Shown: piece after piece, positions 5,607 through 52,530 of the stretch | How the letters are laid out: each line of letters opens with the position of its first letter | Position numbering within the stretch: the stretch's first letter is position 1 | Assembly: GCA_963717045.1 (NCBI GenBank) | Contig: CAVQVD010000015.1 | Coordinates: 687,747 to 751,746, forward strand | Direction of reading: 5' to 3' | Origin: an uncultured delta proteobacterium | GTDB taxonomy: Bacteria; Desulfobacterota; Binatia; Binatales; Binataceae | Length of the DNA: 64,000 bases | Position numbers and translations under genes: made by a program | The notes under the pieces: generated by a model | The model's input: only the letters and a program-made list of their open reading frames with translations | What the model was told of the DNA's origin: nothing | The model's database searches: none

Positions 5607-5656
5607 CGTCCTATTGGATCTTGCTGAGATTTTGCTGACATCTTGCGAGGAGAGGC

Positions 5657-6454: not shown

Positions 6455-6475
6455 AGCCGCTTCGGGGAAACAGCT

Positions 6476-6709
6476 ATGCGCATCGTCTTTCGCCTCTCGC
6501 GCGCCACGATGGTCGCGCTCTTATGGACCGGTATATTCGCCGCCCGCGCGTATGCTCACGGAGGAATTGCCGGACCCGACGAACTTGGGCCGCCGGTAAT
6601 CACCTCGGCCGTACTTGGCATTGGGGGCTATTGGCTAATGATGCTGTGGCCAGCGCGCAGCCGTCCTGTCGTCAACAACAGACGCAAATCGGCGCGTCAC
6701 GCGCGATGA
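6476..6709 (+). CDS. small hypothetical exported membrane protein encoded between subunits A and B (signal peptide, N-terminal His after predicted cleavage, one TM helix, basic tail)
   Basis: 77-aa ORF with GGGGAA RBS-like element; signal peptide ...ARAYA|HGG mirrors PmoB signal peptide ...PRAFA|HGE; fills otherwise 310-bp A-B gap. Confidence 0.35.
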   Translation: MRIVFRLSRATMVALLWTGIFAARAYAHGGIAGPDELGPPVITSAVLGIGGYWLMMLWPARSRPVVNNRRKSARHAR

Positions 6710-6764
6710 ACGCGATGAAATAGAAGAGTCTTCAGGCGATTTCTACGCCATTCGGGGAGGCGGA

Positions 6765-24786: not shown

Positions 24787-25070
24787 CAGACCTTTTCCTG
24801 TGGTTGGGCCTGTTGCTTGCCCTGGGTTTTTAGCGCTGGTCTGGAAGTGCGCCTGCAGCCGCTCTCCTTAAAGCTACATTTTGCGCCGACCATGGCGAAA
24901 GTGCATCCTACGTCGGGCATCTTTTCCCACTGGACGGCTGCCTGTTGGGCCTGGAGCCCCAGCTTTCCGAGCGCGGGCGAAAAGGCGGCGGCCGCCATGA
25001 GCGATCAGCCCTAGCCAGCAGTTCTGTTGACGCGGGCGGATGCTTCGCGTTATCGCCTTGGTTGAAACCT

Positions 25071-30314: not shown

Positions 30315-30330
30315 TACGCTGTTTTTTGAG

Positions 30331-31821: not shown

Positions 31822-31892
31822 TCGGGAACTGAGTTGCTGCCACCGGGCGCAGAATCCCGCGCCGTGCTCTGGACCCGTAACAGGAGGAGAAC

Positions 31893-32210
31893 ATGAAACA
31901 CTTGAAGGCGGCGAACAAGAAGGCCCGTGCGGTTGAAGCAATTCGCACGGGGGGAGACGTGGTCGGGATGGTGCAGCCGATGGGCTGTACCACGATTTTC
32001 AATCCCGGCTGGGAAGCCGACCCTTGGGGTGGCGCGCATGCGATGTGCAGTCCCACGGAAGCCGATCTGGCGGGATGCTCGGGCGTGTGCTGGTGGCCGG
32101 CACAAGTGCCGGACAGCCTGCAGAACTATCCTGAATGGGCAAAGGGCTGCTCCGGTGTGAACATGGAAGACTGGAGAAGCCTGAACGTGGAGTTCCCCAA
32201 AGTTAAGTAG
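31893..32210 (+). CDS. qhpC: quinohemoprotein amine dehydrogenase gamma subunit (CTQ and thioether-crosslinked peptide) with leader
   Basis: Numbering from Met25, Cys7/Glu16, Cys27/Asp33, Cys37/Trp43 and Cys41/Asp49 fall exactly at published QhpC crosslink/CTQ positions; CSGVCWWPAQV. Confidence 0.8.
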   Translation: MKHLKAANKKARAVEAIRTGGDVVGMVQPMGCTTIFNPGWEADPWGGAHAMCSPTEADLAGCSGVCWWPAQVPDSLQNYPEWAKGCSGVNMEDWRSLNVEFPKVK

Positions 32211-32365
32211 AGACGAACGCCTCGGCCGCCGCTGGCCGAGCAACTACATTGGCTTGTCGAGGGGCGTCGGCCTTGCATGCAAGGTGCGCGAGCCAGTCGC
32301 TTCGTCGCGGCCGCGCGCTCAAAGGGTGATCAGGTAGGCTGCAAGGCGAGTCGCAAAGGATTGTC

Positions 32366-33517
32366 ATGACCAACAAGAATGGTTGGCAGCTACGTCTGTA
32401 CGGTTCGTGGATTTTTGGACTCGCGCTGATGATGTGGGCGGGCACTGCGTCGGCCAAATGGTACATGGTCGTGGGGACGCTGCCCAACCTCATTCAGGTC
32501 GTCGACACCACGACTGACAAAGTTGTCAGGACTATTCCGTTGGAGGGTCCCGGGCCGATTCTGCAGGTCTCGACCGATTCTGCGACGCCGCGGTATGCCT
32601 ACGCGACGACCAACCTGGACCAAGCCGTCGCCGTAGTTGACCTGGAACAGGGTAAGCAGGTCGCGACCTACAAGCTGTCGAGCGATACCGAGACCGTACG
32701 GGTTTCGGCTACCAACCTTAATCCCAAGGGCGACAGGTTGTACATAAGCGAGCTGCCGCTCAAGGTGACCCCGGGCCGCTATCAGCACGAAGAGCAGCGC
32801 TTCGTGGTTTACGACACTGCGACCAACAAGGAAGTAAAGTCCTTTCCGGCGCCGGCGCAGACCCTATCGTTCGCATTCTCGCCTGATGGCAAACGGCTCT
32901 ACGCTTTCTGCGTTGGGCAGGACGTGATGGTGCTCGACGCGAACGACGGCCACGTGCTGGGCACGATTCCGCTCGCCCATCGCAATATCACGGGCATCCG
33001 CGCAACGTATGGGCTGCCCCTCCTGGCGAATTACCAGGAGCAGAATTACCTGATCACTTTCGCGATTATCGTCGAGGATTCAATAACCGATACCGACACG
33101 CTGGCGGTTGGCCTGCTCGACCTCAAGCAGCAGCAGCCGGCGCTGCAGATTATCGAGACCGAACCCTTCGTCGAGAACTGGTATTCGGTCGAAGGCATCG
33201 CCACCCCGCCCAACCTGCACAAGGCGTATTTCGTATGGAACGATCTCTGGAAAATCGATTACCAGACCAAGAAGCGGGAAAAAGCAGTCTCTCTTCCCAA
33301 TAGCCAAGCGGTGCCGCTGCTCTCGCCCGACGGCAAGAAGGTGTATTGCGGCGGCCAGTGGCATGCTCTCTTTGTTTACGATGCCAACACGCTCAATCAC
33401 ATCGACGACGTCGAACTCGGCCATTCGATGGCCGGGATCGGGATGCGGTTCGTGCAGAACGATAAAGATCTGGCGGCACCCGGATCCACCAGCCAGGATC
33501 CGCAAAGCTCACAATAG
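32366..33517 (+). CDS. qhpB: quinohemoprotein amine dehydrogenase beta subunit (seven-bladed beta-propeller)
   Basis: Signal peptide, 383 aa, YVTN-like propeller repeats, position in qhp operon. Confidence 0.7.
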   Translation: MTNKNGWQLRLYGSWIFGLALMMWAGTASAKWYMVVGTLPNLIQVVDTTTDKVVRTIPLEGPGPILQVSTDSATPRYAYATTNLDQAVAVVDLEQGKQVATYKLSSDTETVRVSATNLNPKGDRLYISELPLKVTPGRYQHEEQRFVVYDTATNKEVKSFPAPAQTLSFAFSPDGKRLYAFCVGQDVMVLDANDGHVLGTIPLAHRNITGIRATYGLPLLANYQEQNYLITFAIIVEDSITDTDTLAVGLLDLKQQQPALQIIETEPFVENWYSVEGIATPPNLHKAYFVWNDLWKIDYQTKKREKAVSLPNSQAVPLLSPDGKKVYCGGQWHALFVYDANTLNHIDDVELGHSMAGIGMRFVQNDKDLAAPGSTSQDPQSSQ

Positions 33518-33571
33518 TAAGTCAGGTTTGCGAGCGGATATCTGTTAACCGCATCCGCGAAAATTTAACTG

Positions 33572-34357
33572 GTGAGGAAGCCAACCGGCCGCCGTCTCCG
33601 TATCGCGGCCACGTCGCCGGAATTCGATCCCGAATCATTAGGCGCGCGCACGGGCGCGGGCGTTCGCGTCGCGCTCATCGATAGCGGGATCAACTCCGCC
33701 CATTCACACGTTGGTCCGCTCGCTGGCGGAGTAGCTTTTAGCGCCGGCTCTAACAGCAAGGTGCTGCAGAGCTCTGATTTTAACGACACTCTGGGACACG
33801 GTACCGCGCTGGCCGGAATTCTGAAATTCAAAGCGCCCGAGGCGACATTGTTCGCCGTGAAGGTTTTCACAGACCGCCTGGTGACGTCGATCGAAATTCT
33901 CGAAGCGGCACTCGGCTGGGCGATAGAGCAGAAGATGCACGTGATCAATCTGAGTCTAGGGACCGACAACCCCGCGCATCGTGCGCGGATGGCAAAGATA
34001 GCGGCGAGGGCCAAGCGCGCCGGAACGTTGATCGCCGCCTCGTCTCCACCCGGACGGTCAGACATGCTTCCCGCGGCCCTCGACGGCGTCTTCGGTGTGG
34101 CAGCGAGTGACGATTGTTCGTGGAGCGAGTACCGATACGTCCCGGACGACCCGATTCATTTCAGGGCTCACCCGTCGCCGCGCCCGTTGCCCGGCCTGGA
34201 CCAGTCGCGCAACTATCGCGGGCACAGCTTTGCCTCGGCGCATCTGAGCGCTTTGCTGGCGCTGCTGATTGAGGATCGCCCGGAGTTGGGATTCGCGAAC
34301 GCTCGCGAGCGCTTGTTGAAATGTACCGGACTGCCGCTGCCGTTGAAGAATCCTTGA
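33572..34357 (+). CDS. qhpE: subtilisin-like S8 serine peptidase (QhpC leader peptidase)
   Basis: Catalytic triad blocks ALIDSGI, HGTALAGI, GHSFASAH; GTG start. Confidence 0.8.
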   Translation: MRKPTGRRLRIAATSPEFDPESLGARTGAGVRVALIDSGINSAHSHVGPLAGGVAFSAGSNSKVLQSSDFNDTLGHGTALAGILKFKAPEATLFAVKVFTDRLVTSIEILEAALGWAIEQKMHVINLSLGTDNPAHRARMAKIAARAKRAGTLIAASSPPGRSDMLPAALDGVFGVAASDDCSWSEYRYVPDDPIHFRAHPSPRPLPGLDQSRNYRGHSFASAHLSALLALLIEDRPELGFANARERLLKCTGLPLPLKNP

Positions 34358-34399
34358 TGATCGTTCGCGGGAACGCACGCGGCCGTTGCCCCGCTTGTT

Positions 34400-36140
34400 C
34401 TAGGCAACGCGCTCCTGCGCCCGCATTTTCTGCGACACGCCGTCGGGGTGGTCGCCGTAGCTGCCGCTCCACAACACGCGGCCGTTGTCGAGCACCATCA
34501 CGTGATCGTCCTGCCGGATCGAGGACAGCCGATGCGTGATCATTATCACCGTGCGGCCGGGCAGCGCTCGTTCAACAGCGGCCCGGATTTCAGCTTCGCT
34601 GACCACGTCCAGCGCCGAAAGGGCTTCATCAAGGACCAGGATTTTAGGACCCTTGAGTAGCGCACGAGCGATAGAGATGCGCTGCCGTTGGCCGTCGGAG
34701 AGCGTCGCTCCATGCTCGCCGACCGGGTTATCGTAGCCATCGGGCAACGAGCTAATGAAATCGTGGAGTCCGACCGCGCGCGCGGCGGCGATCACCTGCT
34801 CCCGCGAGGCGTCCGGACAGGCATAGCGGAGGTTTTCGATCATCGGCGCGTGAAACACGAAGGCCTGATGTCCGGTCACTACCAGTTGGTTTCTGAGCCA
34901 TGCCAGATCGAGAGTGCGGAGCTCGTGGCCGTCGAGCAGGATCGAGCCGGCCGCCGGGTTCGATCAACCGGGCCATCAGGTCGACGATCGAGGTCTTACC
35001 GGCGCCGCTTGGGCCAACAATTGTGAATCTCCCGCCTGCGGGAATTTTGAAATTCAGGTCGTCGAGAATCGGTACGGCTGGATCATGGCTGAAGGTGACC
35101 CGCCGAAATTCGATCTCTCCGTGAACCTCGGGCAGCCGGAGGGTTCCTGGCGCGCTTTCGTTTTCGGTTGGCAGGTCAAGGAATTCGAAGATACGGTCCA
35201 CGGAGACGCCCGCGCGCTGCAGCCGCAGGTAGAGATCGATCAGCGCCTGTAATGGACTGAACGCGCGCATCTGATAGGCCGAGAATGCCACCAGACTGCC
35301 GATCGTCATGTGCCCTTCGATTACCAAGTATCCGCCGTAAAGCGTCACCAGTGCGGAACCGAGAAATGTGCTGGCGGCAGAAGCGCTGCTGCCCAGATAC
35401 GCGAGCATCTCGAGCCGCGTGACTGAGTTGACGAATGCGACGCCCAGGGCGGAAAGCCGGGCGTGCTGGACTTTTTCGGCTACAAAAAGCTTTACAAATT
35501 TTATTGCCGACAGTGACTCTACCAAAAATGACGAAATTGCCGCGTTGAGTTCGCGGACGGCGCGAGTCTGATTCACGATCAACGGTCGAAACCGCATCAC
35601 TCCGTACAGTTGCAACGGCACCAGCGCCAAGCTGAGTAAAAACAGCTTCCAGTTCAACCACAGGAGAAAACCGGTCGCGGCGAACAGCGTGAAAATGTTT
35701 GCGATAAAATTGAAGCCAGCGTCGGTCAGCATCGCTTGCACTTCAGCGATGTCGGTATTGAGACGCGAAAGAAGGTCGCCGACTTTTGCCCGCACGTGAA
35801 AACGCATCGGCAGCGCTTGCAGATGCTCGAACAGATGCTGGCGTAGATTGAACAGCACCCGCGCCGTTACACTGGTGTAGTAGTAGCGATTGAACGCGCC
35901 GAGCACATAGCTCGCGACGGTAACGGCGATCATTACGCCGGTGAGAATCCAGAGCAGGCGTAGATTGCGGGCCTGAAGGACATCGTCAATCAGAATCTTG
36001 GTGAAAATAGGCCAGAGCAGGCCCAAAATCGTATTCGAGAACGACAACAGAAAAATGATGGCGAGCTTGGAACGAAATCCCGAAAGAAACGGCAGCAGTC
36101 GGCGAACGCGCGAAAGGCTGACTTTGCTGAGCGGCCTCAT
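34400..36140 (-). CDS. qhpF: ABC exporter, fused permease-ATPase (QhpF-like); frame broken by 1-nt indel near 34940-34960 (fragments 34930-36140 and 34400-34879)
   Basis: Six-TM domain then Walker A GPSGAGKTS in one frame; LSDGQRQR signature, Walker B ILVLDEA and H-loop continue in adjacent frame; start chosen at ATG 36140 with GGAG RBS. Confidence 0.7.
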
Positions 36141-36383
36141 TAAGCTCCATTTTTCTCGAGCTATGAGGCGCATTAGTCCATAACCCGAGCCCCGGCGTAA
36201 TCCGACGCCGCATTCGTTCCTGACCATTCGATCATCATCCGAAGCGGCTATCGACTTTCGCGTGCGCAATGATAGTAATCCGCTCGGCAGGAAAGCAAGA
36301 TAAGAGAGAATCAGTAGAAGATCGACTCAAATCAGTAAAGGACTGACCTAGATCGGTAAGGGACTGCTGTCGAATCGAAGCAA

Positions 36384-37121
36384 ATGGAAAGAACCACCGA
36401 TATCGCCAATCCGAAGGACGGCTCCCAACTGATGCTGATTCCCGAGGGTGAATTCCTGATGGGCAGCGATGATGGCTATCCCAGCGAGCGCCCCGCCCAT
36501 CGCGTCTTCGTGAGCCCGTTTTATATCGCCAGAACCCTTGTCACCAACTCCCAATACCGAAGCTTTGTGCTGGAGACCGGATACGCGGCGCCTTACATGG
36601 ATGATCCCCGGGCCGAGTGGGCGAATTGGGATCGGGACAGCAAAAACTTTCCCGCCGGCCGTGAAACGCACCCGGTGGTGCTCGCCTCGTGGATTGATGC
36701 TTCGGCTTACTGCGAATGGGCAGGGACCAGACTGGCTACCGAGGCCGAGTGGGAAAAGGCGGCTCGCGGAGGCTTGGACGGCAAGCTGTTTCCGTGGGGC
36801 GATGAGGAAATCTCCCACGAGCTAGCCAACTACGACAATCAGGACGGTACCACTCCGGTGGGCGTTTATCCGCCAAATGGCTATGGTCTTTACGACATGG
36901 TGGGTAATGCGTGGGAATGGGTGGCCGACTACTATGACCCCAAATACTATTCGCGGTCGCCCATGCGCGATCCCCGCGGACCGGAGCAAGGCTCATCGCG
37001 GGTGCTGCGCGGTGGTTCGTGGCTGCTGTTTGCCCGTTACTGCCGAGTTTCGTACCGATTCAGGAATAGTCCAAACTTCCACGCTAGCTTGATTGGCTTT
37101 CGTGTGGCTCGGTCGCTATGA
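36384..37121 (+). CDS. formylglycine-generating enzyme (FGE/SUMF1) family protein
   Basis: LMLIPEGEFLMGSDD, YCEWAG, MVGNAWEWVADYY, RVLRGGSW blocks typical of FGE domain. Confidence 0.8.
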   Translation: MERTTDIANPKDGSQLMLIPEGEFLMGSDDGYPSERPAHRVFVSPFYIARTLVTNSQYRSFVLETGYAAPYMDDPRAEWANWDRDSKNFPAGRETHPVVLASWIDASAYCEWAGTRLATEAEWEKAARGGLDGKLFPWGDEEISHELANYDNQDGTTPVGVYPPNGYGLYDMVGNAWEWVADYYDPKYYSRSPMRDPRGPEQGSSRVLRGGSWLLFARYCRVSYRFRNSPNFHASLIGFRVARSL

Positions 37122-38556
37122 GAGCGCCTTCTCGGTAGAGCCGGACCAGGGCCGCACGCACCATGCCGGAATCCGCGCGGGTTCCCTCGCGTCGCTTCAG
37201 ATAGCCCGCCACGATATCGGTTATCGCGGGCTTCTTTTTGATCTCCTTGAGCAGAGCCGGTACGCATACGTTGTGAAGGAATCGAAGACCCCGCGTGTTA
37301 CTGTCGCTCACGAAAACCTCACGGGTTTTCACGCGCGGCCATTCGAGCACTGGGCGCCGCTCGATCCTGACGTCCGAGGCGAGGCGTACGTGCGAAACCT
37401 CGGTAGGTGGCTTGAGCGTCGCTCCGTTGGCCGGCGCGCGCGAGAGCGAAGCCAGCAGGCCGCTGCGCTTCTGCCAGAAAACGGAATCCGGCCATCGCCG
37501 TTCCTGGTCGTAGTATTCGGCGGATTGGCGATAGTGCGTCGAGTAAGCATTGCTCTGTGCGTCGCGATAGAAGCTAAGAGCGCTTGCGGATGACGCCGGG
37601 CTGCTCAGGCTAGTGTTTATCACCGCGGCCCCGGTGATTGCCGACGCCATCGCTGTCTGCACGCCCTCTGAAGAGAGCGGATCGATGAATAGTCCGGCGT
37701 CGCCCAAAAGCAGAAAGCGCTCGCCGGCGAACTGACGAGCGGTATACAAGGTCGCGTCCGAAACCCGGAGCGGGTGCGGTAGGCTGGCGGTCGCAAGAAA
37801 TTTCGAGACGTATGAAAGCCTGTCTATTTCGGACAGATAGAAAGCCCCGAGTCCGAGTTCCCGAATGCGCCGGCCCTCGCTCCAATCGACCAGCAGAGTG
37901 ACGTTGCGCAGCCCGTTCTGCAGCGGGACCGACCATACCACGCCGTTCTCATACGCTTCGAGTAGAGTGTTGCCGAAATCATCGCCCGCGGGCGCCGCGG
38001 CGTCGCGCCAGTAGCCGGTTACCGCAAGCGTTTGGAAGTCCGGGTCGCGTTGGCGAAAATCCTGACGCGCGAGAATTCCGGCATGACCGCTTGCATCGAC
38101 AAAAAATCGCCCCCTGATCGGGGCCTCGCGCGCGGTATGCACCGTCACGCCACGCCTATCGATGCGGACGCCATTGACGCCCGCGCCGAGCCTGACCTCC
38201 ACTTTTTTCTGGCGACGCGCATTCTCCAGCAACAGCATATCGAAGGTCTCGCGCCAGACCTGGAAGCCCATTCTGGATTTGTCTGCGCTGTAGTAACCGG
38301 TGCGCGGCTCGGGAGTGCCCCAGCACACGGTGTGGCCGGCCATTCGGAGGAACCCGCCGCTCTCCACCGTTTGGCGCAACCTGAGAAAATCCAGGACCGA
38401 AAGGATGCTGGGGGTCAGCGATTCACCGATTCGGTAGCGGGGAAATTTGCTTTTGTCCAGCAGCAGGACCCGAAAGCCGAGCCCAGCCAGCAGATAGCCG
38501 GCGGTGCTGCCAGCCGGACCTGCGCCGGCGATTACAACGTCGGGGTTTGTGGCCAC
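37084..38556 (-). CDS. qhpG: FAD-dependent monooxygenase of tryptophan-halogenase-like fold (QhpG-like)
   Basis: VVIAGAGPAGSTAGYLLA GxGxxG motif, about 490 aa, adjacent to qhp genes. Confidence 0.7.
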   Translation of the reverse strand: MATNPDVVIAGAGPAGSTAGYLLAGLGFRVLLLDKSKFPRYRIGESLTPSILSVLDFLRLRQTVESGGFLRMAGHTVCWGTPEPRTGYYSADKSRMGFQVWRETFDMLLLENARRQKKVEVRLGAGVNGVRIDRRGVTVHTAREAPIRGRFFVDASGHAGILARQDFRQRDPDFQTLAVTGYWRDAAAPAGDDFGNTLLEAYENGVVWSVPLQNGLRNVTLLVDWSEGRRIRELGLGAFYLSEIDRLSYVSKFLATASLPHPLRVSDATLYTARQFAGERFLLLGDAGLFIDPLSSEGVQTAMASAITGAAVINTSLSSPASSASALSFYRDAQSNAYSTHYRQSAEYYDQERRWPDSVFWQKRSGLLASLSRAPANGATLKPPTEVSHVRLASDVRIERRPVLEWPRVKTREVFVSDSNTRGLRFLHNVCVPALLKEIKKKPAITDIVAGYLKRREGTRADSGMVRAALVRLYREGALIATEPHESQSS

Positions 38557-40001: not shown

Positions 40002-40392
40002 GTTCGACGCTCCCCAATCGAGTTGAATTTCTCACTCACACCGGAGCGCAAGCATACAGTGGGCGCCGCGCGCGCGTCAAATCACAGGCTAACGATTGGG
40101 GCGCTGCCGAAACAGGCAGCAGCGGCCAGAGCACTAGGCAGGCAGAGTTATAGGAAATCGCGCTCAACCTGCAAGGGCTGAAACTACGTCGGTTAATCGT
40201 GTGTGTGGCTGACTGGATAATGGAAGTGAATAGTGCGTCTCGGTGGATGCATACTCGTGCCTGGAACGCGACGTCGGTTGTTTACGCGCGTCCGGCCCGC
40301 TTGCAAAGCCAGGGCAGGCGGGTGTTGAATTCCAGTCTAGAGGTGAGCGAGCGGCGGACGCGAAGAGTCTAGTCCCCGTGAGAAGAACTCCA

Positions 40393-41649
40393 ATGCTCTT
40401 CCGGCCAAGAAAGACAAATACACCTAAGCGGAGTGTGGCGGCGGCCGCTTTGCTCGTGGCGGCGGCTTCGCTCGCGCTGGTAGGCTGCAGTCGCGCGGAG
40501 CGTAGATCAAGTTCGGTGTCGCAGACGACGCAAGCCGCCGCTGCCTCAACCGCGACTCCGGCCGGCTACGTCTATGTAACCAACAATGGCGAAGGCACTG
40601 TGTCTGAGTTCAGCCGGCACGCTGACGGCGCGCTCGATTTTCTACGCACGGCAAAAGCCGGAGCAATAAACGGCCCCACTGGAATCGCGATCGATCCGTC
40701 CAGCCGCTTTCTCTACGTGACTAACGAGGGCGACGGCCGGATTTACGAATTCCGCATCAAACGCGACAGCGGCGACCTCGCGGCGATTGGGAATGGACCG
40801 GTGGACGCTGGAGCCGGAAGCCATCCACAGCAGATAGCGATTAGTCCCCGAGGCGACTTCGCATACGTCACCAATTACGGCAAAGGCATTGATGGTTCAA
40901 TTGCGGAATACGCAATCAACAACACGACCGGTGCGCTCAAGCCATTGGAGATATTTCGTGGTGGCGGTCTGCAGCGTCCGCTGGGGATCGCGTGCACGCC
41001 CAACGGCAGATTCGTTTACGTTTCCGACAGTGGCGCCGGAACGCTGGTCGCGTTCGCGGTCGAATCCTCCGGAAAACTTAAGCAGGTAGCGACTTCTCCC
41101 AGCCTTGGTGATAAGCCGGGGCAGCCCGGACTTGTCGCGATTCATCCATCTGGCAAATTTGTCTACACAGTCGACCGTGCGCTGGGTTTTGTGGTGGTGG
41201 CCAAGACCGCCGAGAACGGAAAGCTCAGCGTGATAAACACTTATCATGTTGGAATTTCGACCTCGGGGCCATTCGGTATCGCACTGGCGGCCGTGGGTTC
41301 GAAGATGTTCGTCTACACCGGCAACCGAGGCTCAGACACGATCTCTTCGCTCGAGGTGAAGCCGAACGGACTGGAGGTCGTGGGCGAGTGCCCAACCGGG
41401 ATGGGTTATCCGACCGGTATGGTGACCGATCCAAGCGGCCATCTTCTGTACGTGGTCAATCGCGATGCTTCGACGGTGACGCAGTTCGCGCTCGCCGCGG
41501 ACAATGGTATTGCGATCCTTCCGGCCGCTGCCGTCTTTACCGGGCTGGCACCCAGCGAAGCGAGCCATCCACTATATATTGCGATGACTCGTTGGGACGC
41601 GCCTTCTTCGGTAGCGCACGAAGAAACCCCGGAGCAACGGACGAATTGA
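40393..41649 (+). CDS. lipoprotein, lactonase-like seven-bladed beta-propeller (YVTN repeat family)
   Basis: Lipobox LALVGC; repeated YVTN/YVVN blades (FLYVTNEGDG, FAYVTNYGKG, LLYVVNRDAS). Confidence 0.7.
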   Translation: MLFRPRKTNTPKRSVAAAALLVAAASLALVGCSRAERRSSSVSQTTQAAAASTATPAGYVYVTNNGEGTVSEFSRHADGALDFLRTAKAGAINGPTGIAIDPSSRFLYVTNEGDGRIYEFRIKRDSGDLAAIGNGPVDAGAGSHPQQIAISPRGDFAYVTNYGKGIDGSIAEYAINNTTGALKPLEIFRGGGLQRPLGIACTPNGRFVYVSDSGAGTLVAFAVESSGKLKQVATSPSLGDKPGQPGLVAIHPSGKFVYTVDRALGFVVVAKTAENGKLSVINTYHVGISTSGPFGIALAAVGSKMFVYTGNRGSDTISSLEVKPNGLEVVGECPTGMGYPTGMVTDPSGHLLYVVNRDASTVTQFALAADNGIAILPAAAVFTGLAPSEASHPLYIAMTRWDAPSSVAHEETPEQRTN

Positions 41650-41679: not shown

Positions 41680-42864
41680 TCAACCGCGCGTGCTTTTGAG
41701 CTCGACCGGGGCATAGAAGGGCCGGTCTCCGAGAGCATCGATAGCGCGGAAGAATTCCGGGCCTGACGCACTACCGTCCTCTTCAAGTTGCATCGTCTGG
41801 CGCAGATAATTCCAGCGCTCCGGGCATAGCCGCCGAGTCTCCTGAAAGTAACGCTTGGCTTCCTCCGCGTGTCCCTGATGATGGAGGTACTGTCCGACTC
41901 TAAAATAGGCCGTGGCAAGCGGATCGACGTTCACGGGCGCATGAATTCGCCTGCGAACCTCTTCGGCGGAGAGCACGTACTCACTGGCTTCACCTTTGGC
42001 CACCCAGTCGCGGATAGCGTCGACGTAAGTTCTGCGGATCGCTCGGCCGCGCTCGATCGCTTCCTTCTTCATCTGGAAGGTGGTGCGATCCATCGAACGG
42101 AACCCATCGTTGGTGCCAGCAGCCTCCGCAGGACGCACGATCTTGCCGCGCTCGTCGATCCACACGGCCATCGGTACGTTGGTCATGTTGTATAGCTCGG
42201 CAACCACGTGGCGTTCGTCGATTAGATTGGGATAAGTGGGAGCCGCCGCGCGATCGCATAGCGCCGCGTCCCATCCCATGATTTCCTGAAACAAGGGATC
42301 GATCCGCACCGGTTCCGGCGGTTTGATGAAATCACGCACCGCGGCAGTCCCGCCGCTATCGAATGCTACAGAGACAATCACAAAGTTGCGGTCTTTCAGT
42401 TCGTTGTAGATAGCCTGCCAGACTGGCAGGTCAAAGCGGCATCCTCACCAGCTTGCCCACGAAAGCAGGAGAACCTTGCGGCCCCGGTAGTCCGAAAGCG
42501 AATGCAAGTTGCCTTCCATATCCGGCAAAGTGAAATCGGGGGCGTCAAGCGACTCGAGGGCGGCGCGCCGCGTATCCGCCGACTCACCAAAGAACCAAAG
42601 TGAATGCGGGTCGTCGTGGACGACGGGTTGGCCGAGCTGCCGAGCCAGGGCTGCTAAGTTGACCAAGTCGCCGGCACGCAAAAAGTCGTCACGGCGGCCG
42701 GGTGGAACCGGCACGCAGCGCTCATCGCGACAAAGGCCCTGTGGCTTGAGCTCCCAGCCCGTCGCGGCACGCAGCTCGCTCACAGGCATCCAGAGATCGT
42801 CAGCCTGGGCCTGGGCGTTCTCGACGGTCACGGGCTGATCTTCGTAAATAATAGTCACTGCCAT
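41680..42864 (-). CDS. TlpA/ResA-like thioredoxin-fold oxidoreductase with in-frame TGA at catalytic position (candidate selenoprotein, W-U-G-C); otherwise two ORFs 42445-42864 and 41680-42381 in the same frame
   Basis: APDFTLPDMEG...RKVLLLSWASW-TGA-GCRFD...NVPMAVWIDERGKIV is a continuous redoxin fold if TGA is read as Sec/Cys; no frameshift. Confidence 0.5.
42414..42430 (-). promoter_or_regulatory. SECIS-like hairpin (CCUGCCA-GUC-UGGCAGG) 14 nt downstream of the in-frame UGA
   Basis: Perfect 7-bp stem with GUC loop, close to E. coli fdhF minimal SECIS (apical GGUC) in shape and spacing. Confidence 0.4.
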
Positions 42865-42948
42865 CGATTTCCCTCCGGCGCGGCGCTTACGGAGTTAATA
42901 CTAGCTCAAAATCAAGCAGATTCTCAAAGCCGGCGCGATAGCCACTAA

Positions 42949-43509
42949 TCAGTTCTTGGCCTGGGTTATGGTGACCGAGGAAATGAGCTTGAGAGCGCGC
43001 TGCTTTTCGGCAGAGGACAGGTTGTCGGCCGGATCCATCGGCGCGTAAGTTACCTGTAGCTCCCATGGTCCGATGTAAGCAATCCGCTGCAGCAGGTAGC
43101 GTTCGCCCTTTTGACCGGGGCATCCGATTCCGCGCATCTCGAAAATCACATTCTCAGCGGTCTTGCTAAGCGTCGTAGCGATGGCTTTCTGACACTGCTG
43201 GTTGGCCGTATGAACGAGGGCGTTGACGACCGCTTGGGGCGAGTCGAACGTGGGCTTGGGAGTCTGAGCAAGCACCACCCGGACCTTTGCGGTCGCCGGC
43301 GCCTCGCCCTTACGCACCAGAACCTTTACCGTCGCGCGTGGAGCGTGCTGGTCGCGGACCACCTGCCAATCTTCCCAGCCCATCGCGGGTGGCAAGTTCA
43401 TCTGATCACCGGCCGGCTCTTTCACGGCCGGAGTGGCCGCGCTCGTGACTGGCCGAGCGACCATCAATGGCAACAGGCAAATCAGGAACGAGAAGCTGGT
43501 AGCTCTCAT
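42949..43509 (-). CDS. secreted hypothetical protein
   Basis: Signal peptide MRATSFSFLICLLPLMVARPVTSAA; no recognisable domain. Confidence 0.4.
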   Translation of the reverse strand: MRATSFSFLICLLPLMVARPVTSAATPAVKEPAGDQMNLPPAMGWEDWQVVRDQHAPRATVKVLVRKGEAPATAKVRVVLAQTPKPTFDSPQAVVNALVHTANQQCQKAIATTLSKTAENVIFEMRGIGCPGQKGERYLLQRIAYIGPWELQVTYAPMDPADNLSSAEKQRALKLISSVTITQAKN

Positions 43510-43591
43510 TGCGCGCGAGATTAACAAAGTCAGGGAACCTGCGCCAGCAAAGACCCCGTATGTCCGGCAATGGCGGCAGACCTACGAACGT

Positions 43592-44605
43592 TTAGCGTTG
43601 ATGTCCCACCCAGTCAGCGCTGTTCAATGAAGACAAAAACTTGTTCAGATACGAATCGCTACGGCCGTTGAACCAGCTTCCCGAAAAATGAGTCTCGATA
43701 CAGCCATAGGCAAGATATTGAAGATTGTTCCATCCAGAGACGTTTGAAGGTGCGTTGGGGTTAGACGCCGCATTGTTGACGGCATTCGCATAGTCGGCTC
43801 CCGATTTCCTGTTTTGTGAATGGAAATAGCTATATTGATCGCCGTTCACGCATCCACGCATCTCGGCGTAGCGATAATCCAAGCTGAAGGAGGTTGACTC
43901 TTCTATCATCGGCCATGTGGCCCACTCGTAATACACTTTGGTCTGGGCGATGCCCCACGAGTCATACTGATTCGTTCCACTTAGTCCGCCAAACCCCTCC
44001 ATCTCACAGAATTGCCCGTTAGGCGTGACCGAAGTTACTACCCCGCCCGTGATCGAGGTCGGGGTACAGCCGGATGGGCTGTTTTCATCCCCACCCTCGT
44101 TGCATCCGGAGCCTCCGTGCGCTGCAGCACAATCTTGATGCCAGCCGCTCTCGATCCATGCCTGCGCACGTATGTAGTCTTCGTCAATCCCCCACTTGCA
44201 CGCGGTGATGCGAATCAGGTCATCTGTCGTCCCCGAGTAATTGCCATCAACCTGGGCGAAGTCCGTTTGTGGAAGTTCGCTGCAACAGGGGGCGTCGGCG
44301 TAGAAATAGGATGGAATCTGCCCGGCCGCATTATTTGAATTCCACTGCGTAGGGCTCCCATCGTTTTCATTCCATGGTGCGTTTTCCGGGAGGGGAGACG
44401 CATTCACTGCTGTAGCGCAGCTTCCTTCGGTAGGCAATTTCGCACCGGGACCGAACATGGAATAGTGTCCTGGCGGAACAGCAGTCGGCGACGGGATGGG
44501 GGTTGGAGTCGGACGAGTAGCTGCCGGCGATGCCAGCGCCATTAGCAACACGCAAAGCAGAACGACAAGGCATGCTACATGAAACGCAGACACCTTAATT
44601 GTCAT
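43592..44605 (-). CDS. secreted Cys-rich hypothetical protein
   Basis: GGGGGA RBS before MTIKV start; signal peptide; Pro/Thr linker; many Cys/Trp. Confidence 0.45.
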   Translation of the reverse strand: MTIKVSAFHVACLVVLLCVLLMALASPAATRPTPTPIPSPTAVPPGHYSMFGPGAKLPTEGSCATAVNASPLPENAPWNENDGSPTQWNSNNAAGQIPSYFYADAPCCSELPQTDFAQVDGNYSGTTDDLIRITACKWGIDEDYIRAQAWIESGWHQDCAAAHGGSGCNEGGDENSPSGCTPTSITGGVVTSVTPNGQFCEMEGFGGLSGTNQYDSWGIAQTKVYYEWATWPMIEESTSFSLDYRYAEMRGCVNGDQYSYFHSQNRKSGADYANAVNNAASNPNAPSNVSGWNNLQYLAYGCIETHFSGSWFNGRSDSYLNKFLSSLNSADWVGHQR

Positions 44606-45080
44606 ATACTCGTCCCCCGCCACGAGCTGCTGCTGCCCTAGTGAACCACGCGCACTGGCCGTCCTTAGAGATGCGCCGGAGAGATACGCCGCTGGCTCGG
44701 GAATGTGCCGCTAGCAAGATCGAACTGATCGCTGCGGGCAGAACCGCCTAAAATTTGTGTATCTACGACGTGGAGCTATAAGGAGGATGCGGAATAAGAA
44801 GATGTCGGCGTGGCCCCCCCAAGTGCCGACGAAATTAAAGTATCATCATGGCGAAGTCAAGCGTTCTGTTCCCGAACGAAATCGCCCAGGCGCCTCCAAG
44901 TCGCCTGGGTGGAAGATATGGAAAATAGCGGGCCAGCTTTGTTGCGTGGTGGAAAATTGTCGCTGCGATCCGCCTGTAACCGAGGGCCGTGCTTTAACGT
45001 CTCATAAGGCATAAATTGATACGAAGAGAACACCCGACCGTGCGCGGTAAAGCTCCGGCTGGTGCTACAAAACGAAGGAA

Positions 45081-46304
45081 ATGATGGATTCAAGCGCTCC
45101 GCCAGGAGGAGGCGCCAGGGATGTGTACCTCGCACAAAGGGGGCGGACGTCCATTCGTTGGGCTTGGGTCACGCTCCTTCTGGTTGCCGTCGTCGTAGCC
45201 GGATACTTTTTGCTGGCCCGACTCGTCGGATCTCATAGCCCCTCCGCCTCGGCCGCGGTTCACCCGGGGGTGCCGGTTTCGGCGATGGCAGTGACGCGCG
45301 GCGACCTCAACCGCTACCTGACCGCGATAGGAACCGTGACTGCCTTCAACACCGTGACGGTGAAGACGAGAGTCGACGGCCAGATCGTCAGAGTCGCCTT
45401 CAAGGAAGGTCAGACAATGCATCAAGGCGACCTGCTGGTGGAAATCGATCCGCGGCCATACCAGGCGACACTGGAACAGGCCGTGGGGCAACTGGCGAAA
45501 GATGAAGCCACGCTGGCCAATGCGAGAATCACCTTGGAGCGGGATCGTGCGTTATTTCAACAGGGGGTGATCGCAGCCCAGGACTTTGACAATCAGCAAT
45601 CGCTGGTAGGCCAGTCCGCGGGAGCGGTGGCAAGCGACAGGGCCAATATCGCGGCTGCCAAGGTGCAGGTGGCATATACCCGGATAACCTCGCCGATCAC
45701 GGGACGCATCGGGTTGCGCCTCGTGGACCAGGGCAACATCGTGCACGCGACCGATGCCACGGGTCTCGCGGTAATTACTCAGTTGCAGCCGATAGCGGTC
45801 GATTTCAGCATTCCCGAAGACAACCTGCCACAAATAATCAAGGACATGCGGCAGGGACAGGAGTTGCCCGCCGACGCGTTCGACCGGGAGCTCAAGACGC
45901 AACTCGCGACGGGTACGCTCGAAACCTTCGATAGCCAGATCGATCAAACTACCGGAACGATCAAGCTGAAAGCGGTCTTTTCTAACTCTGACTATTCGTT
46001 GTTTCCCAACCAGTTCGTCAATATCAAATTGCTGGTGGACACGCTGCGCGATACCCTATTGGTGCCGGCGGCCGCGGTGCAGAGAAATCCGCAGGGTACG
46101 TTTGTATATGTAGTCAAACGAGATAACACGGTCGAGGTGCGCACCGTAGCCGTAGCCGCTTCGCAGGGAGACATGATCGCTCTCAGTTCCGGGTTGGCGG
46201 CGGGCGAGATGGTGGTGACCGACGGACTGGACAAGCTGCAGGCGGGCACCAAGGTGATCGCCCAGGTGCCAGTCAAGGCAACGGTGCAGAGGAGCAGCCA
46301 GTGA
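45081..46304 (+). CDS. mdtA: RND efflux membrane fusion (periplasmic adaptor) protein
   Basis: Biotinyl-lipoyl/beta-barrel MFP pattern, 4-nt overlap with downstream permease. Confidence 0.8.
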
Positions 46305-49300
46305 ATCCGTCGCGGCTGTTCATTCTGCGGCCGGTGGCAACTTCGCTCCTGATGGCCGGTATCCTGCTCGCGGGTCTGGTCGCCTATCGCCAGTTACCGG
46401 TCTCGGCGCTGCCGGAGGTGGACTACCCGACGATCCAAGTTCTCACGTTTTATCCCGGAGCGAGCCCGGACGTGATGGCGTCGTCGGTCACCTCGCCGCT
46501 GGAGCGCCAGTTCGGCCAGGTCCCCGGGCTCAACCAGATGACCTCGAACAGCTCATTCGGCAGTTCGGTCATAACGCTCCAGTTCGTACTCAGTCTCAAC
46601 ATCGACGTGGCTGAGCAGGAAGTGCAGGCTGCGATCAATGCAGCTTCGACCTATTTGCCCACGGATCTGCCTAATCCGCCAATCTACAACAAGATCAATC
46701 CGGCTGACGCTCCGATCCTTACGCTCGCCCTGACCTCGACTCAGCTGCCATTGACCCAGGTGGAAGATTTGGCAGACACGCGCCTGGCGCAAAAAATATC
46801 GCAGGTGTCCGGGGTTGGACTGGTCAGTATCAGCGGCGGGCAAAAGCCGGCGGTGCGGGTCCAGGCCAATCCGACTGCGTTAGCTTCTTACGGCCTGAGC
46901 CTCGAGAGTCTCCGCAGCGCGATCGCGGCGGCCAACATCGACGAGGCCAAGGGAAATTTCGACGGGCCGCAGCAAGCCTACACCATCGGCGACAACGACC
47001 AGTTGCTCACGAGCGCGGACTATCGGCCACTGATAGTGGCCTACCGCAATGGCGCGCCAGTGCGGCTGGAAAACGTGGCTCGGATCATCGACGATGCCGA
47101 GAACGTCAAAGAGGCGGCCTGGATGAATACGGTGCCGGCGGTGATTCTCAACGTTCAGCGGCAGCCGGGCGCCAACATCATCGCGGTGGTGGATAAAGTG
47201 AAGGCGCTGTTGCCGCGCCTGCAGAGCTCGCTGCCGGGATCGGTGAAGGTGGTCGTACTCACGGATCGCACCACTACGATTCGGGCCTCAGTGCAGGACG
47301 TGGAGTTCGAGTTGCTGCTGACTATCGCGCTGGTAGTGATGGTCATCTTTTTGTTCCTGCGCAATCTATCGGCGACGGTCATTCCCAGCGTGGCGGTTCC
47401 GCTTTCCCTAATTGGCACGTTCGGCGTGATGTACCTGCTGGGGTACAGCCTCAACAACCTAACACTCATGGCGCTGACAATCTCGACCGGCTTCGTGGTC
47501 GATGATGCAATCGTCATGATCGAGAATATCGCCCGCTATATCGAGGAAGGTGACGCGCCGCTCGCGGCAGCTTTGAAAGGCTCGCAGCAGATTGGCTTCA
47601 CGATTTTGTCTTTGACCGTCTCGCTGATCGCGGTGCTGATTCCGCTGCTCTTCATGGGTGACATCGTGGGCCGCCTGTTCCGCGAATTCGCGATCACGCT
47701 CGCCGTCACCATCCTGGTTTCGGCGGTGGTTTCGCTGACGCTGACCCCGATGATGTGCGCGAGGCTGCTAAAGCATACGCCCGAGGCCGAACAAGGCCGA
47801 TTCTACCGCGTGACCGGACGAATGTTCGACGCCACCATCGAGTACTATGGGACGACCCTGCAATGGGTGCTGCGCCATCAGAATGCGACGCTATTGGTGG
47901 CGGTGGGCACGTTGGTTCTCACAGTAGTGCTCTACATCATCGCGCCCAAAGGTTTCTTTCCCCTACAGGATACCGGGGTGATTCAAGGAGTATCGGAGTC
48001 GTCGCCCGCCGCGTCCTTTCCGGCGATGGTGGAGCGCCAGCAAGCGTTGGCGCAGGTGATTCTCAAAGACCCCGCGGTCGAAAGCCTGTCCTCGTTCATT
48101 GGCATCGATGGGATCAACACCACCATGAACAGCGGCCGATTTCTGATCAACCTCAAGCCGCTGGCGCAACGCAAAGTCAACATCAGTGCGGTGATTGACC
48201 GCCTGCAGCCGCAACTTGCCAAGGTTCGGGAAATCACGCTGTTTCTGCAGCCGGTCCAGGATTTGACCGTCGAGGACCGGGTCAGCCGCACGCAGTATCA
48301 GTACAGCCTGGAAGACCCCAACGTGAATGAGTTGAACACCTGGACCGCCAAGCTGATGGCGAAACTCGCCACGGTGCCAGAGTTGCGCGACGTAGCTACC
48401 GATCAGCAGAACAACGGTTCACAGGTCGAGTTGGTAATCGATCGCAGCACCGCGTCGCGGCTGGGGATCACGCCGCAGATGATCGACGACACGCTCTATG
48501 ACGCGTTCGGGCAGCGCCAGGTATCCACGATGTTCACGCAGCTAAATCAATATCACGTGGTGCTCGAGGTCGATCCCGAATTCCAGAGCAATCCGCGCGC
48601 GCTTCGCGACATCTATCTCTCGTCGCCGACTGGAGGATCGGTGCCGCTCAGCACCTTCGTGCACTTCGAGCCGAGCAAAGTGCCCTTGATCGTGAGTCAT
48701 CAGGGGCAATTCCCGGCGGTCACTATCTCGTTCAATCTGGCGCCCGGCTATTCGCTCGGCAACGCGGTAACCGCGATCGAGACCGCCCAGCGCGAGATTG
48801 GGATGCCGGCCAGCGTCGAGACCGCATTCCAAGGCACCGCGCAGGCCTTCGAGGCTTCGCTCCGCAACGAACCGCTTTTGATCCTGGCTGCGCTCGTCAC
48901 TGTGTACATCGTCTTGGGCGTGCTGTACGAAAGTTATATCCATCCGATCACGATTCTCTCGACGCTGCCATCGGCAGGGGTCGGAGCGATTCTCGCTCTG
49001 TTGCTTTGCGGCAGCGATCTCAACGTGATCGCCCTCATTGGAATCATTCTGCTGATCGGTATTGTCAAAAAAAACGGCATCATGATTGTCGATTTTGCGC
49101 TCGAAGCCCAGCGAAAGGAGGGCAAGCCCGCGACCGACGCTATTTATCAGGCTTGCCTGCTTCGCTTTCGGCCGATCATGATGACCACGATGGCCGCGCT
49201 GCTCGCCGGCTTGCCGCTGGCGCTGGGCAGCGGCACTGGCTCGGAGTTGCGCCGTCCGCTCGGAATCGCGATGGTCGGGGGACTGCTGCTCAGTCAACTG

Positions 49301-49417
49301 CTGACGCTGTATACGACCCCAGTGATTTTTCTCGCCTTCGAGCGCCTCGCGGCACGGACGACAACGGCGTCTGGTGACTCCGCGCACCCTGAGCCGGACC
49401 TCGCGCGCGCCTCATGA
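46301..49417 (+). CDS. mdtB: RND multidrug efflux permease (MdtB-like)
   Basis: 1038 aa, 12-TM RND pattern, tandem with second permease. Confidence 0.85.
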
Positions 49418-52400
49418 CGTTCTCAGAGACCTTCATCCGCAGACCTGTCGCGACCACGCTTTTGACCGTGGCGATCGCGCTGGCGGGTGCGACAGCATTT
49501 CGGTTGCTGCCGGTTGCTCCATTACCGGAAGTCGATTTTCCAACTATCCAGGTCAGCGGCAATTTGCCCGGCGCCAGTCCAGAGACGATGGCATCTTCGG
49601 TGGCGACACCACTGGAACGGCAGTTCGGGCGCATTGCGGGGTTGACCGAACTTACGTCGACCAGTGCGCTCGGAACTACCAACATCGTGCTGCAGTTCGA
49701 TTTGAACCGTAATATCGACGCAGCGGCGCGCGACGTGCAGGCCGCGATCAATGCTGCGCGCAGTCAACTGCCAGCCAATCTGCCAAGCAACCCGACCTAC
49801 AAGAAAGTAAATCCAGCCGATGCACCGATTCTGATCCTGGCACTGTCTTCCAGTACACTGCGCCGTGGCCTGATCTACGATGCGGCGGATTCGGTTTTGG
49901 CGCAGAAGTTGTCGCAGATTCAAGGTGTGGGTCAGGTTACGGTCGGAGGCAGTGCGCTGCCCGGCGTTCGTGTCGAGCTGAATCTCAACGTCTTGAACAA
50001 CGACGGCATCGGTCTCGAGCAAGTGCGCAGTGCGATCAAGAACGCCAACGCCAACCGCCCCAAGGGAGAGGTCGCCGATCAATCCAATGCCTGGGCGCTA
50101 AACGCCACCGACCAACTACTCAGCGCCGATCAGTACCGCCCGCTGATCATCGCCTATCACAACGGCGCCGCCGTTCGCCTTTCCGACGTAGCCGACGTGG
50201 TGGATTCGGTTGAAGACGTGCGCAACGCGGGAGTCGTTGACGGCACTCCGTCAGTTCTAATCATCATTTTCCGGCAACCCGGCGCCAACATTATCGCCAC
50301 GGTGGATCGGGTGCTCGCGGACCTGCCCCAGTTGCAGGCTTCGATTTCCCCGGCGATCAAGATGTCCGTGGTGCTTGACCGGACCACGACCATTCGCGCG
50401 TCCGTCAATGACGTCGAGTTGACCCTGCTCATCTCGATCGCGCTGGTCATCATGGTGGTATTTTTCTTTCTGCGTAACTGGCGAGCCACCGTGATTCCAG
50501 GCGTGGTAGTTCCGATTTCGCTGATTGGAACCTTCGGCGTCATGTATCTATGCGGGTATAGCCTCGACAACCTCTCACTGATGGCGCTGACTATTTCCAC
50601 CGGCTTCGTCGTCGACGACGCGATCGTGGTTATCGAGAACATCTCTCGCTACCGTGAGGAGGGCATGGCGCCTTTCGAAGCGGCCGTTCGCGGAGCGCGC
50701 GAAATCGGATTCACGGTGGTCTCGATCAGTATTTCGCTGGTCGCGGTGTTTATCCCGATCTTGCTAATGGGCGGAATCGTGGGTCGCCTGTTCCGCGAAT
50801 TCGCAGTCACCCTGTCGACGGCGGTGGTGGTTTCGATGATCGTTTCGTTGACCACTACACCGATGATGTGCGCCAAGCTGCTGCGGTCCGAGGCTGACGA
50901 GCAGCACGGTCGCTTCTACCGGGCGAGCCAGAGAGTTTTCGACCGCGCGCTGGCTGGATATACGATCGGACTCGAGTGGGTGCTGCGGTATTCACGCTTC
51001 ACCCTAGCGATAGCCCTGCTCACGGTCGGTCTTAGCGTGTACCTGTTCTCGGTCATCCCCAAAGGATTTTTTCCACAGCAGGATACTGGCCGTCTGATGG
51101 GCGCTATTCAGGCCGACCAGGACACCTCGTTTCAGTCGATGCGCGATCGGCTCACCGAGTTCGTCCGCGTCATCAAGGCGGACCCGGCCGTCGATCACGT
51201 GATCGGATTTGCCGGAGGAAACGCCGGCAGCACCAACTCGGCCCGCATGTTCATCGCCCTGAAACCGCTCGCGCTGCGCAAACTCAGCGCCGATCAGCTC
51301 ATCGCGCGGCTGCGCAAAAAGACCGCACACATCCCGGGTGCGACGCTCTATCTTCAAGCCGTGCAGGATCTGCGCATCGGCGGCCGCTCGAGCAACGCGC
51401 TCTATCAGTACACCCTCCAAGGATCCGACCTGCAGGAGCTTAACCAATGGGCACCGCGCCTGCTCCAAAAAATGCGCGCTATGCCGATACTGACCGACGT
51501 GAATAGCGATCAGCAGAACAGCGGTCTTCAGGCCGCCCTGGTGGTAGACCGCGATAGCGCATCGCGCCTGGGGCTCACGCAACAGGTGATCGACGATACA
51601 TTGTACGATGCCTTCGGCCAGCGTCAGGTATCGACGATGTATACGCCGCTGAATCAATATCACGTCGTGATGGAAGCCGCGCCCAGGTATTGGCAAGATC
51701 CCACTTCGCTGTCGCAACTCGACGCGCGCTCGACTAATAACACTGAAGTCAAACTTAGTACCTTCACCCACTACCAGCCGACCACCACCGCGCTCTCGGT
51801 GAATCATCAGGGACAATTTCCCTCGGTGACGGTCTCGTTCAACCTGAGGCCGGGCGTTTCTCTCGGCCAAGCGGTGGTGGCGATCGATGCGACTCAGAGG
51901 AAAATCGGTTTTCCAAGCAGCATTCACGGCAGCTTCGCGGGCACCGCCCAGGCCTTCCAGGATTCGCTGGCGAACGAACCGATGCTGGTCCTGTCCGCGC
52001 TCTGCGCCGTCTATATCGTGCTGGGAATTTTGTACGAGAGTTACGTTCATCCGGTAACGATTCTTTCGACTCTGCCTTCCGCCGGTGTCGGTGCGCTGCT
52101 GGCATTGATGGTGTTCCGCATCGACCTGACCGTCATCGCGCTCATCGGTATCATTCTGCTGATTGGTATCGTCAAGAAAAACGCGATCATGATGATCGAC
52201 TTCGCCCTGGAAGCTGAGCGCAAGCATGGCAAAACCTCCCTGGAAGCCATCGAGGAAGCTTGTCGCTTGCGCTTTCGGCCGATCATGATGACCACGATGG
52301 CGGCGCTGCTCGGCGCCTTGCCGCTGGCAGTGGGTAGCGGCACCGGTTCGGAACTGCGCCGACCGCTCGGAATCGCAATTGTCGGCGGTCTGATCGTGAG

Positions 52401-52530
52401 CCAGATGCTCACGCTGTTCACCACGCCGGTGATCTATCTATATATGGAACGGCTTCGACTATGGGGTGAAAGCCTGCGCAGACGCATTTCGCGCAAGCCC
52501 GCGATCGGGCCGGGAATCGCCGACGTCTAG
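49414..52530 (+). CDS. mdtC: RND multidrug efflux permease (MdtC-like)
   Basis: 1038 aa paralog of preceding permease; start overlaps its stop (ATGA). Confidence 0.85.

Follow-up and report, generated by a model that had tools for sequence, protein, structure and literature searches.

The stretch of DNA considered here, 64,000 nucleotides of contig CAVQVD010000015.1 from an uncultured delta proteobacterium of the Binataceae (hereafter the window), raises the question of whether a TGA codon on its minus strand ends a gene or is read as selenocysteine (Sec) within one. As the original prediction stated, two open reading frames (ORFs) of the same frame are parted by this TGA alone, and the ORF listing and translation give one frame of 394 codons, 42864..41680 (-), whose sole interruption is the TGA at codon 140 (42447..42445). 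It is read here, with a probability of about 0.92, as a single gene encoding a 394-aa cytoplasmic selenoprotein that belongs to a known family of UGC-containing ResA/TlpA-like redoxins (NF041054). The single frame, the membership of the family, the column shared by cysteine and Sec, the conservation of the TGA and the conservation, covariation and Sec-specific codon constraint of a hairpin downstream of it are established directly. The proposal of a candidate selenoprotein, which had been made from the sequence alone, is thereby supported by the hidden Markov model of the family, the conserved TGA and a hairpin that follows the rules for bacterial Sec insertion.

One reading frame and its UGA codon

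The ORF before the TGA covers 42864..42448, with 139 codons from an ATG start, and a further 254 codons follow in the same frame up to the stop at 41682..41680. The peptide around the UGA reads ...RKVLLLSWASW-U-GCRFDLPVWQ...NVPMAVWIDERGKIV, with W136-A-S-W-U140-G-C142 as its active-site motif. In profile searches, for which cysteine was written in place of U, Pfam AhpC-TSA (6e-14) and Redoxin (7e-11) matched residues 107-243, spanning the TGA, in keeping with the continuous thioredoxin fold that had been predicted on read-through and with the ResA/TlpA-like model of a homologue. The NCBIfam equivalog NF041054.1, "WAxxUGC_long", which is described as "ResA-like WAxxUGC motif-containing protein", was matched at 317.1 bits (E = 1.7e-94), its curated cut-off being 300, and it is also matched by all 15 aligned relatives.

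A homologue search of a collection of 5.8 billion proteins gave 588 relatives. The closest of these, at 78-100% identity, are fragmentary, 219-247 aa long, and start just past the TGA, because gene callers stop there, and the remoter relatives (42-58% identity) are full-length proteins of 360-410 aa covering 98-100% of the read-through protein. The full-length homologues carry cysteine at the TGA column (WASW-C-GC), with C140, G141 and C142 invariant among 56 aligned sequences, which is the Cys/Sec pairing that had been expected. The spacing of U-G-C, one residue shorter than CxxC, had also been pointed out and turns out to be a hallmark of the family, not an anomaly.

The locus could instead be taken as two genes, one for a protein of 139 aa that ends at the TGA and one for a protein of 233 aa that starts at GTG 42381. 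This same split is made by the gene callers of Joint Genome Institute (JGI) metagenomes, and public annotation (loci L112-L115, protein P0001) lists an ORF of 139 aa as 'AhpC-TSA (weak)' and one of 233 aa as 'hypothetical protein'. The split would however cut the thioredoxin fold at its active site, the 21 in-frame codons from the TGA to the GTG hold the invariant G141, C142 and W149 together with D145 and P147, where little or no variation is seen, and the Cys-type homologues of 360-410 aa are single proteins. Two genes are thus exceedingly improbable, and recognition of the locus as one 394-aa selenoprotein corrects public records that split the gene or translate its TGA as tryptophan.

An ortholog scan using one genome per species gave 80 loci, 78 of which have TGA at codon 140 and two TGC. 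They are found in Binataceae and 'delta proteobacterium' metagenome-assembled genomes (MAGs), Chloroflexota/Dehalococcoidia, Rokubacteria/Methylomirabilota, Alpha-, Beta- and Gammaproteobacteria, Myxococcota and Acidobacteriota, with the nearest orthologs in the Binataceae/'delta proteobacterium' MAGs at 86-90% amino-acid identity. A 3.7-kb contig binned as Tepidiformaceae (Chloroflexota; L002, DATNET010000101.1) carries an ortholog 88% identical to the window protein, its flanking genes are the same as those of 'delta proteobacterium'/Binataceae-like MAGs, and this suggests mis-binning. The same gene also lies on four JGI metagenome contigs from different samples, at 99.4-99.7% nucleotide identity, and all four have the TGA. 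Within the window 16 of the 29 domain-supported genes use TGA as their stop, the genetic code is therefore the standard one, and this, together with the TGA in 78 of 80 loci and in four assemblies, rules out an error, a pseudogene and an alternative code.

The case for an error or a pseudogene, in which a miscall or a nonsense mutation from TGC to TGA broke a Cys-type redoxin gene, would draw on a probable indel or frameshift elsewhere in the window, in an ABC transporter gene near 34940 when compared with locus L112, from which it follows that assembly errors do occur here. It is effectively refuted, since the identical codon recurs across phyla and in four independent assemblies that are more than 99% identical, and the TGA is accordingly no base error. 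The 254 codons 3' of the TGA moreover stay in frame and conserved, and the synonymous-site constraint on the hairpin, described below, is confined to genes with TGA.

It is also conceivable that the UGA is read through as a residue other than Sec, either tryptophan or cysteine inserted by near-cognate suppression or the product of an alternative genetic code. The database entries P0003 and P0033 have tryptophan at the UGA column, and the Sec machinery is not seen in the window. The tryptophan of P0033 is however a translation artefact produced by translating TGA, as the DNA of locus L111 has TGA and its translation with table 11, the bacterial code, does not give the entry; for P0003 the tryptophan is that of the protein entry only. 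Since so many well-supported genes of the window (16 of 29) end in TGA, and a conserved hairpin of the bacterial type with a Sec-specific codon constraint would be pointless in simple suppression, read-through as another residue is highly improbable.

A hairpin under the codons of a conserved peptide

The perfect hairpin with a GUC loop that the original prediction placed shortly past the TGA is indeed present in the sequence (Table 1), and it spans the last base of the D145 codon, the codons of L146-Q150 (L-P-V-W-Q) and the first base of the A151 codon. In the consensus for a bacterial selenocysteine insertion sequence (bSECIS), a stem of 4-16 bp bears a loop of 3-9 nt, one of the first two bases of the loop is a G with G or U after it, the loop lies 16-37 nt past the UGA, and the folding energy does not exceed -7.5 kcal/mol (PMC13188914, 2026 review). 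The hairpin of the window agrees with all four of these rules, with a 3-nt loop on a 7-bp stem, a loop that starts with G-U, a UGA-to-loop distance of 21 nt and a folding energy of -11.5 kcal/mol. Taken by itself, the 66-nt region is no more stable when folded than shuffled sequence (z = 0.1), and the hairpin is for this reason judged by comparative evidence only.

Across 73 distinct Sec-type sequences the six core pairs of the stem are formed in 434 of 438 cells (99%), with compensatory double changes between CG and UA at two of the core pairs and GU wobbles elsewhere, and controls in which the position was slid all gave far lower pairing. The seventh pair, an A-U, is formed only in a subset of sequences that includes the window, most orthologs having instead a 5-nt loop, CGUGU. 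A competing hairpin, in which the 5' arm UGCCGC (Cys-Arg codons) pairs with GUGGCA, appears in several minimum-free-energy folds and was rejected: it is paired in 77% of cells, is broken in the gammaproteobacterial clade, shows no covariation and has a loop without an initial G.

As the peptide under the hairpin is conserved, a control was built from Cys-type genes encoding the same peptide, made up of 27 metagenome loci from a pattern search and other Cys-type loci. Synonymous sites were then compared by Fisher test between 70 Sec and 25 Cys genes, all encoding DLPVWQ. The Leu codon ends in G in all 70 Sec genes and in 18 of the 25 Cys genes (p = 4e-5), the Gln codon is CAG in 69 and 16 respectively (p = 1e-5), and the full 6-bp stem is formed in 66 and 11 (p = 4e-7), these p-values being optimistic because the compared sequences are related by phylogeny. 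The lone Sec gene with CAA carries a compensating UUG. The synonymous sites under the hairpin are thus constrained in the Sec genes and not in the Cys genes, a contrast that does not come from one event, as a neighbour-joining tree needs at least 10 Sec/Cys changes.

The resemblance to the SECIS of E. coli fdhF that had been proposed is confined to the general shape. The G-U that opens a small apical loop and the distance from the UGA are alike, and in both cases the hairpin lies within the coding sequence right after the UGA. A defining feature of the fdhF element is a bulged U in its upper stem, whereas the stem of the window is a perfect helix without it, and the hairpin has no match among the Rfam families.

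Besides the relatedness of the compared sequences, several points weigh against the reading as a selenoprotein. The codons of D-L-P-V-W-Q are inherently self-complementary (CUG CCN GUN UGG CAG), so the conserved peptide itself favours a stem, and as the full stem is present in 11 of 25 Cys genes part of the conservation of the hairpin is at the level of the protein. No Rfam SECIS model matches the hairpin even at E <= 10; nothing in the whole window matched Rfam at the gathering thresholds, and a search at E <= 10 over 42350-42480 gave only a chance match to Norovirus CRE. No experiment on a member of the family turned up in the literature searched. Finally, selA, selB, selD and tRNA-Sec were not found in the 64-kb window, where the Pfam/NCBIfam scan for sel genes took in every ORF of at least about 320 aa except the second RND permease ORF at 49414-52530. 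ARAGORN found no tRNA of any kind in the window, and in 60 related loci only a tRNA-Val (L035) and no tRNA-Sec. No other credible TGA-split gene was seen in the window. Recognition of the gene as one for a selenoprotein implies the use of Sec by its source, a soil bacterium that is probably Binataceae-like.

What is mildly new here is that the SECIS lies within the codons of a conserved peptide that are already half a hairpin in the Cys genes, and that metagenome annotation systematically splits or mistranslates the gene.

Family, fold and predicted chemistry

The selenoprotein family itself is already known, having been described in 2008 and curated by NCBI, and its motif, its use of Sec and its existence are not new. 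It was listed in a study of data from Global Ocean Sampling as "Prx-like (UGC-containing)", under pfam00578 with the motif UGC and with 46 sequences of the Sec form and 855 of the Cys form (Zhang and Gladyshev 2008, PMC2398784). The term 'WAxxUGC' was not found in the searched literature. With NF041054 the window gene shares the W-A-x-x-U-G-C motif, the long three-domain architecture and Sec or Cys at the same column, and it is a plain member that nothing substantive sets apart. Members of the family, most of them in the Sec form, are spread over many phyla, and its Se-S centre, with one residue between selenium and sulfur, is a reasonable target for biochemistry.

The additional domains that had been noted are real, one of about 100 aa at the N-terminus and one of about 140 aa at the C-terminus, the latter helical with a tetratricopeptide (TPR)-like repeat. 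Structure was approached through an AlphaFold2 model of a Cys homologue, P0004, which is 56% identical to the window protein and of the same length, and through a model of the N-terminal 105 residues of the window protein itself. The model of P0004 has three domains with a mean predicted local distance difference test score of 95, and helices at 267-377; in the window protein Pfam TPR_2 matches residues 317-349, under the gathering score. In Foldseek the central domain of P0004 superposes on ResA, DsbE and TlpA (E = 4e-10, target template-modelling score 0.76), the best matches being ResA 1su9/1st9, DsbE 3gl3 and TlpA 1jfu/4txo, and U-G-C stands at the start of the first long helix of the model, as CxxC does in ResA. 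D145, three residues past the second redox residue, probably corresponds to Glu80 of ResA, and N229-V-P231 appears to occupy the position of the cis-Pro loop.

The N-terminus, MAVTIIYEDQPVTVENAQAQADD, has by inspection, not by a signal-peptide predictor, no hydrophobic or basic signal segment and is part of a globular domain, in line with the earlier statement that there is no signal peptide. For the N-terminal domain a characterised structural relative was not found. Its G-x-C-x4-C-[VI] pair (C45-C50, 42715-42732 (-)) is kept in 102 of 111 loci, with Sec or Cys active sites alike, and may be a second redox centre, a metal site or a structural disulfide. The clade of the window has an insertion of about 26 residues (aa ~182-207) that is common to only some relatives. 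The window protein has Asn where most members have Cys213; a third redox residue tied to the use of Sec was considered at this position and rejected, as it varies between C, S, A and N in both Sec and Cys forms.

ResA of Bacillus subtilis and TlpA of Bradyrhizobium are extracytoplasmic thiol-disulfide reductases of cytochrome c and CuA maturation. The window protein is like them in its thioredoxin fold with the ResA-type insertion, in a nucleophile that stands behind a conserved Trp where helix 1 begins, and in the acidic residue three after the second Cys (D145, E80 in ResA) and the V-P loop. It differs in having W-U-G-C, with one residue between the redox residues, and not W-C-x-x-C, in its additional domains at both ends, in having by inspection neither signal peptide nor membrane anchor, and in that its gene does not adjoin cytochrome-maturation genes. 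The ResA profile NF002854 gives 60.8 bits against a cut-off of 170 and the TlpA profile NF047696 46.2 against 230, both matches being limited to the catalytic core. As it has no CxxC, scores below these cut-offs and lacks an export signal, the protein is not TlpA or ResA proper, and neither is it a canonical peroxiredoxin.

The most likely role is that of a cytoplasmic selenol/thiol-disulfide oxidoreductase. UGA-140 would be read as Sec, the hairpin 14 nt downstream, in the D-L-P-V-W-Q codons, recruiting SelB with its Sec-tRNA(Sec). Sec140 would lie at the N-terminus of the first helix of the thioredoxin fold, in the place of the nucleophilic Cys of ResA, and is predicted to attack an oxidised substrate, a disulfide or perhaps a sulfenate or peroxide. 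The intermediate could then be resolved by Cys142, two residues further along, to give a strained Se-S ring within U-G-C, which a cellular reductant would re-reduce. The two outer domains, the N-terminal one with its CX4C pair and the helical/TPR one at the C-terminus, probably bind a partner or relay to one.

The main functional rival keeps the same gene and the same Sec and makes of the protein a peroxidase like the peroxiredoxins (Prx) or glutathione peroxidases (GPx), with Sec140 peroxidatic and Cys142 resolving; it too counts against the role preferred here. The best Pfam match is AhpC-TSA (PF00578, 52.5 bits against a gathering score of 26), there is a weak match to GSHPx over residues 111-165 (E = 1.8e-4), the local A-S-x-U-G resembles the active-site string of GPx, and 'Prx-like' was the earliest name given to the family. 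The signature P-x3-[TS]-x2-C of the Prx is absent, however, as U140 is preceded by L133-L-S-W-A-S-W, in which position -3 is Ala and position -7 is Leu, and the ResA and TlpA profiles of NCBIfam outscore those for Prx (the PrxQ and Bcp models give 17-21 bits against cut-offs of 140-260). Among the structural neighbours, thiol-disulfide oxidoreductases or thioredoxins (ResA, DsbE, TlpA, Etrx) fill the first 40 places, with the first Prx (Bcp1, 3drn) at rank 41, and the likely placing of D145 and of the V-P loop suits an oxidoreductase of the thioredoxin type. A peroxidase is thus unlikely, and a thiol-disulfide oxidoreductase remains the preferred role.

Small-ring dichalcogenides, with redox residues one apart or adjacent, occur in engineered or natural C-X-C redox centres, such as the CGC peptide and CGC-thioredoxin, which mimic protein disulfide isomerase, and in the GCUG Se-S centre of mammalian thioredoxin reductase. 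From such a small ring one would expect strain, a relatively oxidising character and fast exchange. In contrast to these C-X-C mimics and to thioredoxin reductase, the window protein is a natural enzyme of the thioredoxin fold with Sec at the first position.

On the neighbour-joining tree of the catalytic region (L001-L115) the two forms, Sec and Cys, are intermingled, and at least 10 changes of state are needed. Some Cys genes nested in Sec clades, L093 among them, retain an intact hairpin, which suggests recent reversion from Sec to Cys. It is tentatively proposed, as a possibility that is on balance doubtful, that the near-SECIS of the Cys genes is a pre-adaptation, in that the many Cys/Sec switches would have arisen because the DLPVWQ codons come so close to a SECIS already, and that the protein is a selenoenzyme of the cytoplasm with three domains, in which electrons pass from the N-terminal CX4C domain to U-G-C. 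If this were true, the relay from CX4C to U-G-C would be a redox module without a studied counterpart.

Genes around the selenoprotein gene

The features of the gene and those of a cluster further along the window are collected in Table 1.

Table 1. Coordinates of the selenoprotein gene, its parts and the amine dehydrogenase cluster in the window
Feature	Position	Strand	Remarks
Complete selenoprotein gene	41680..42864	-	394 codons + terminal TGA stop 41682..41680; ResA-like WAxxUGC member
Shine-Dalgarno GGAGGG	42871..42876	-	6 nt 5' of ATG 42864; read from sequence
N-terminal alpha/beta domain	42565..42864	-	aa 1 to ~100; conserved G-x-C-x4-C-[VI] pair (C45, C50)
Thioredoxin-fold (ResA/TlpA/Prx-like) catalytic domain	42115..42552	-	aa ~105-250; W136-A-S-W-U140-G-C142, invariant D145, V230-P231 loop
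In-frame UGA, codon 140	42445..42447	-	putative Sec, first residue of U-G-C redox motif
bSECIS-type hairpin CCUGCCA-GUC-UGGCAGG	42414..42430	-	perfect 7-bp stem, 3-nt loop, 14 nt 3' of TGA
C-terminal all-helical domain with TPR-like repeat	41683..42102	-	aa ~255-394
Alpha subunit	28680-30314		quinohemoprotein amine dehydrogenase cluster
Radical-SAM gene	30331-31821		quinohemoprotein amine dehydrogenase cluster
Beta-propeller gene	32366-33517		quinohemoprotein amine dehydrogenase cluster
S8 protease	33572-34357		quinohemoprotein amine dehydrogenase cluster
ABC exporter	34752-36269	-	quinohemoprotein amine dehydrogenase cluster
FGE-sulfatase-like gene	36384-37121		quinohemoprotein amine dehydrogenase cluster
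QhpG flavin monooxygenase	37084-38556		NF049967, 250.9 bits vs 240

The selenoprotein gene is convergent with a gene for a lactonase-type beta-propeller (40243-41649), and two ORFs that could not be annotated, 42949-43527 and 43592-44623, lie upstream of it. This synteny is retained only in the closest clade. When the flanking ORFs of 84 loci were clustered there was no universal partner, only neighbours specific to a clade (one subgroup of the Binataceae, for example, has a UvrD-like helicase, PTPS and a sigma-54 activator), and the gene neighbourhood was rejected as a clue to function. About 2.2 kb upstream, on the opposite strand (45081-52530 (+)), are genes for an MdtA/MuxA-type adaptor (45081-46304) and an MdtB/MuxB-type resistance-nodulation-division (RND) permease (46301-49417), followed by a 1038-aa ORF (49414-52530), with the position of the adaptor conserved in the closest clade only.

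The region 28680-38556 is a quinohemoprotein amine dehydrogenase (QH-AmDH) maturation cluster, and the near-identical contig L112 has a QH-AmDH gamma-subunit gene between the radical-SAM and propeller genes. The ABC exporter ORF of the cluster has a frameshift near 34940 in comparison with L112, which is 98% identical: after ...DLMARLIEP the frame shifts by one and the ATPase domain goes on in another frame, giving 505 aa as against 579 aa in L112; either the assembly has an indel here or the gene is truly a pseudogene.

Elsewhere in the window a copper membrane monooxygenase operon of the order C-A-B is found at 4770-8015 (+), with AmoC/PmoC at 4770-5606, AmoA/PmoA at 5657-6454 and Monooxygenase_B/PmoB at 6765-8015. 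Two genes with a glutamine-synthetase catalytic domain, 27046-28527 (+) and 57883-59322 (-), adjoin genes for Rieske oxygenases (24945-26375 and 59386-60783), and both may encode gamma-glutamylation enzymes for the catabolism of amines or aromatic compounds.

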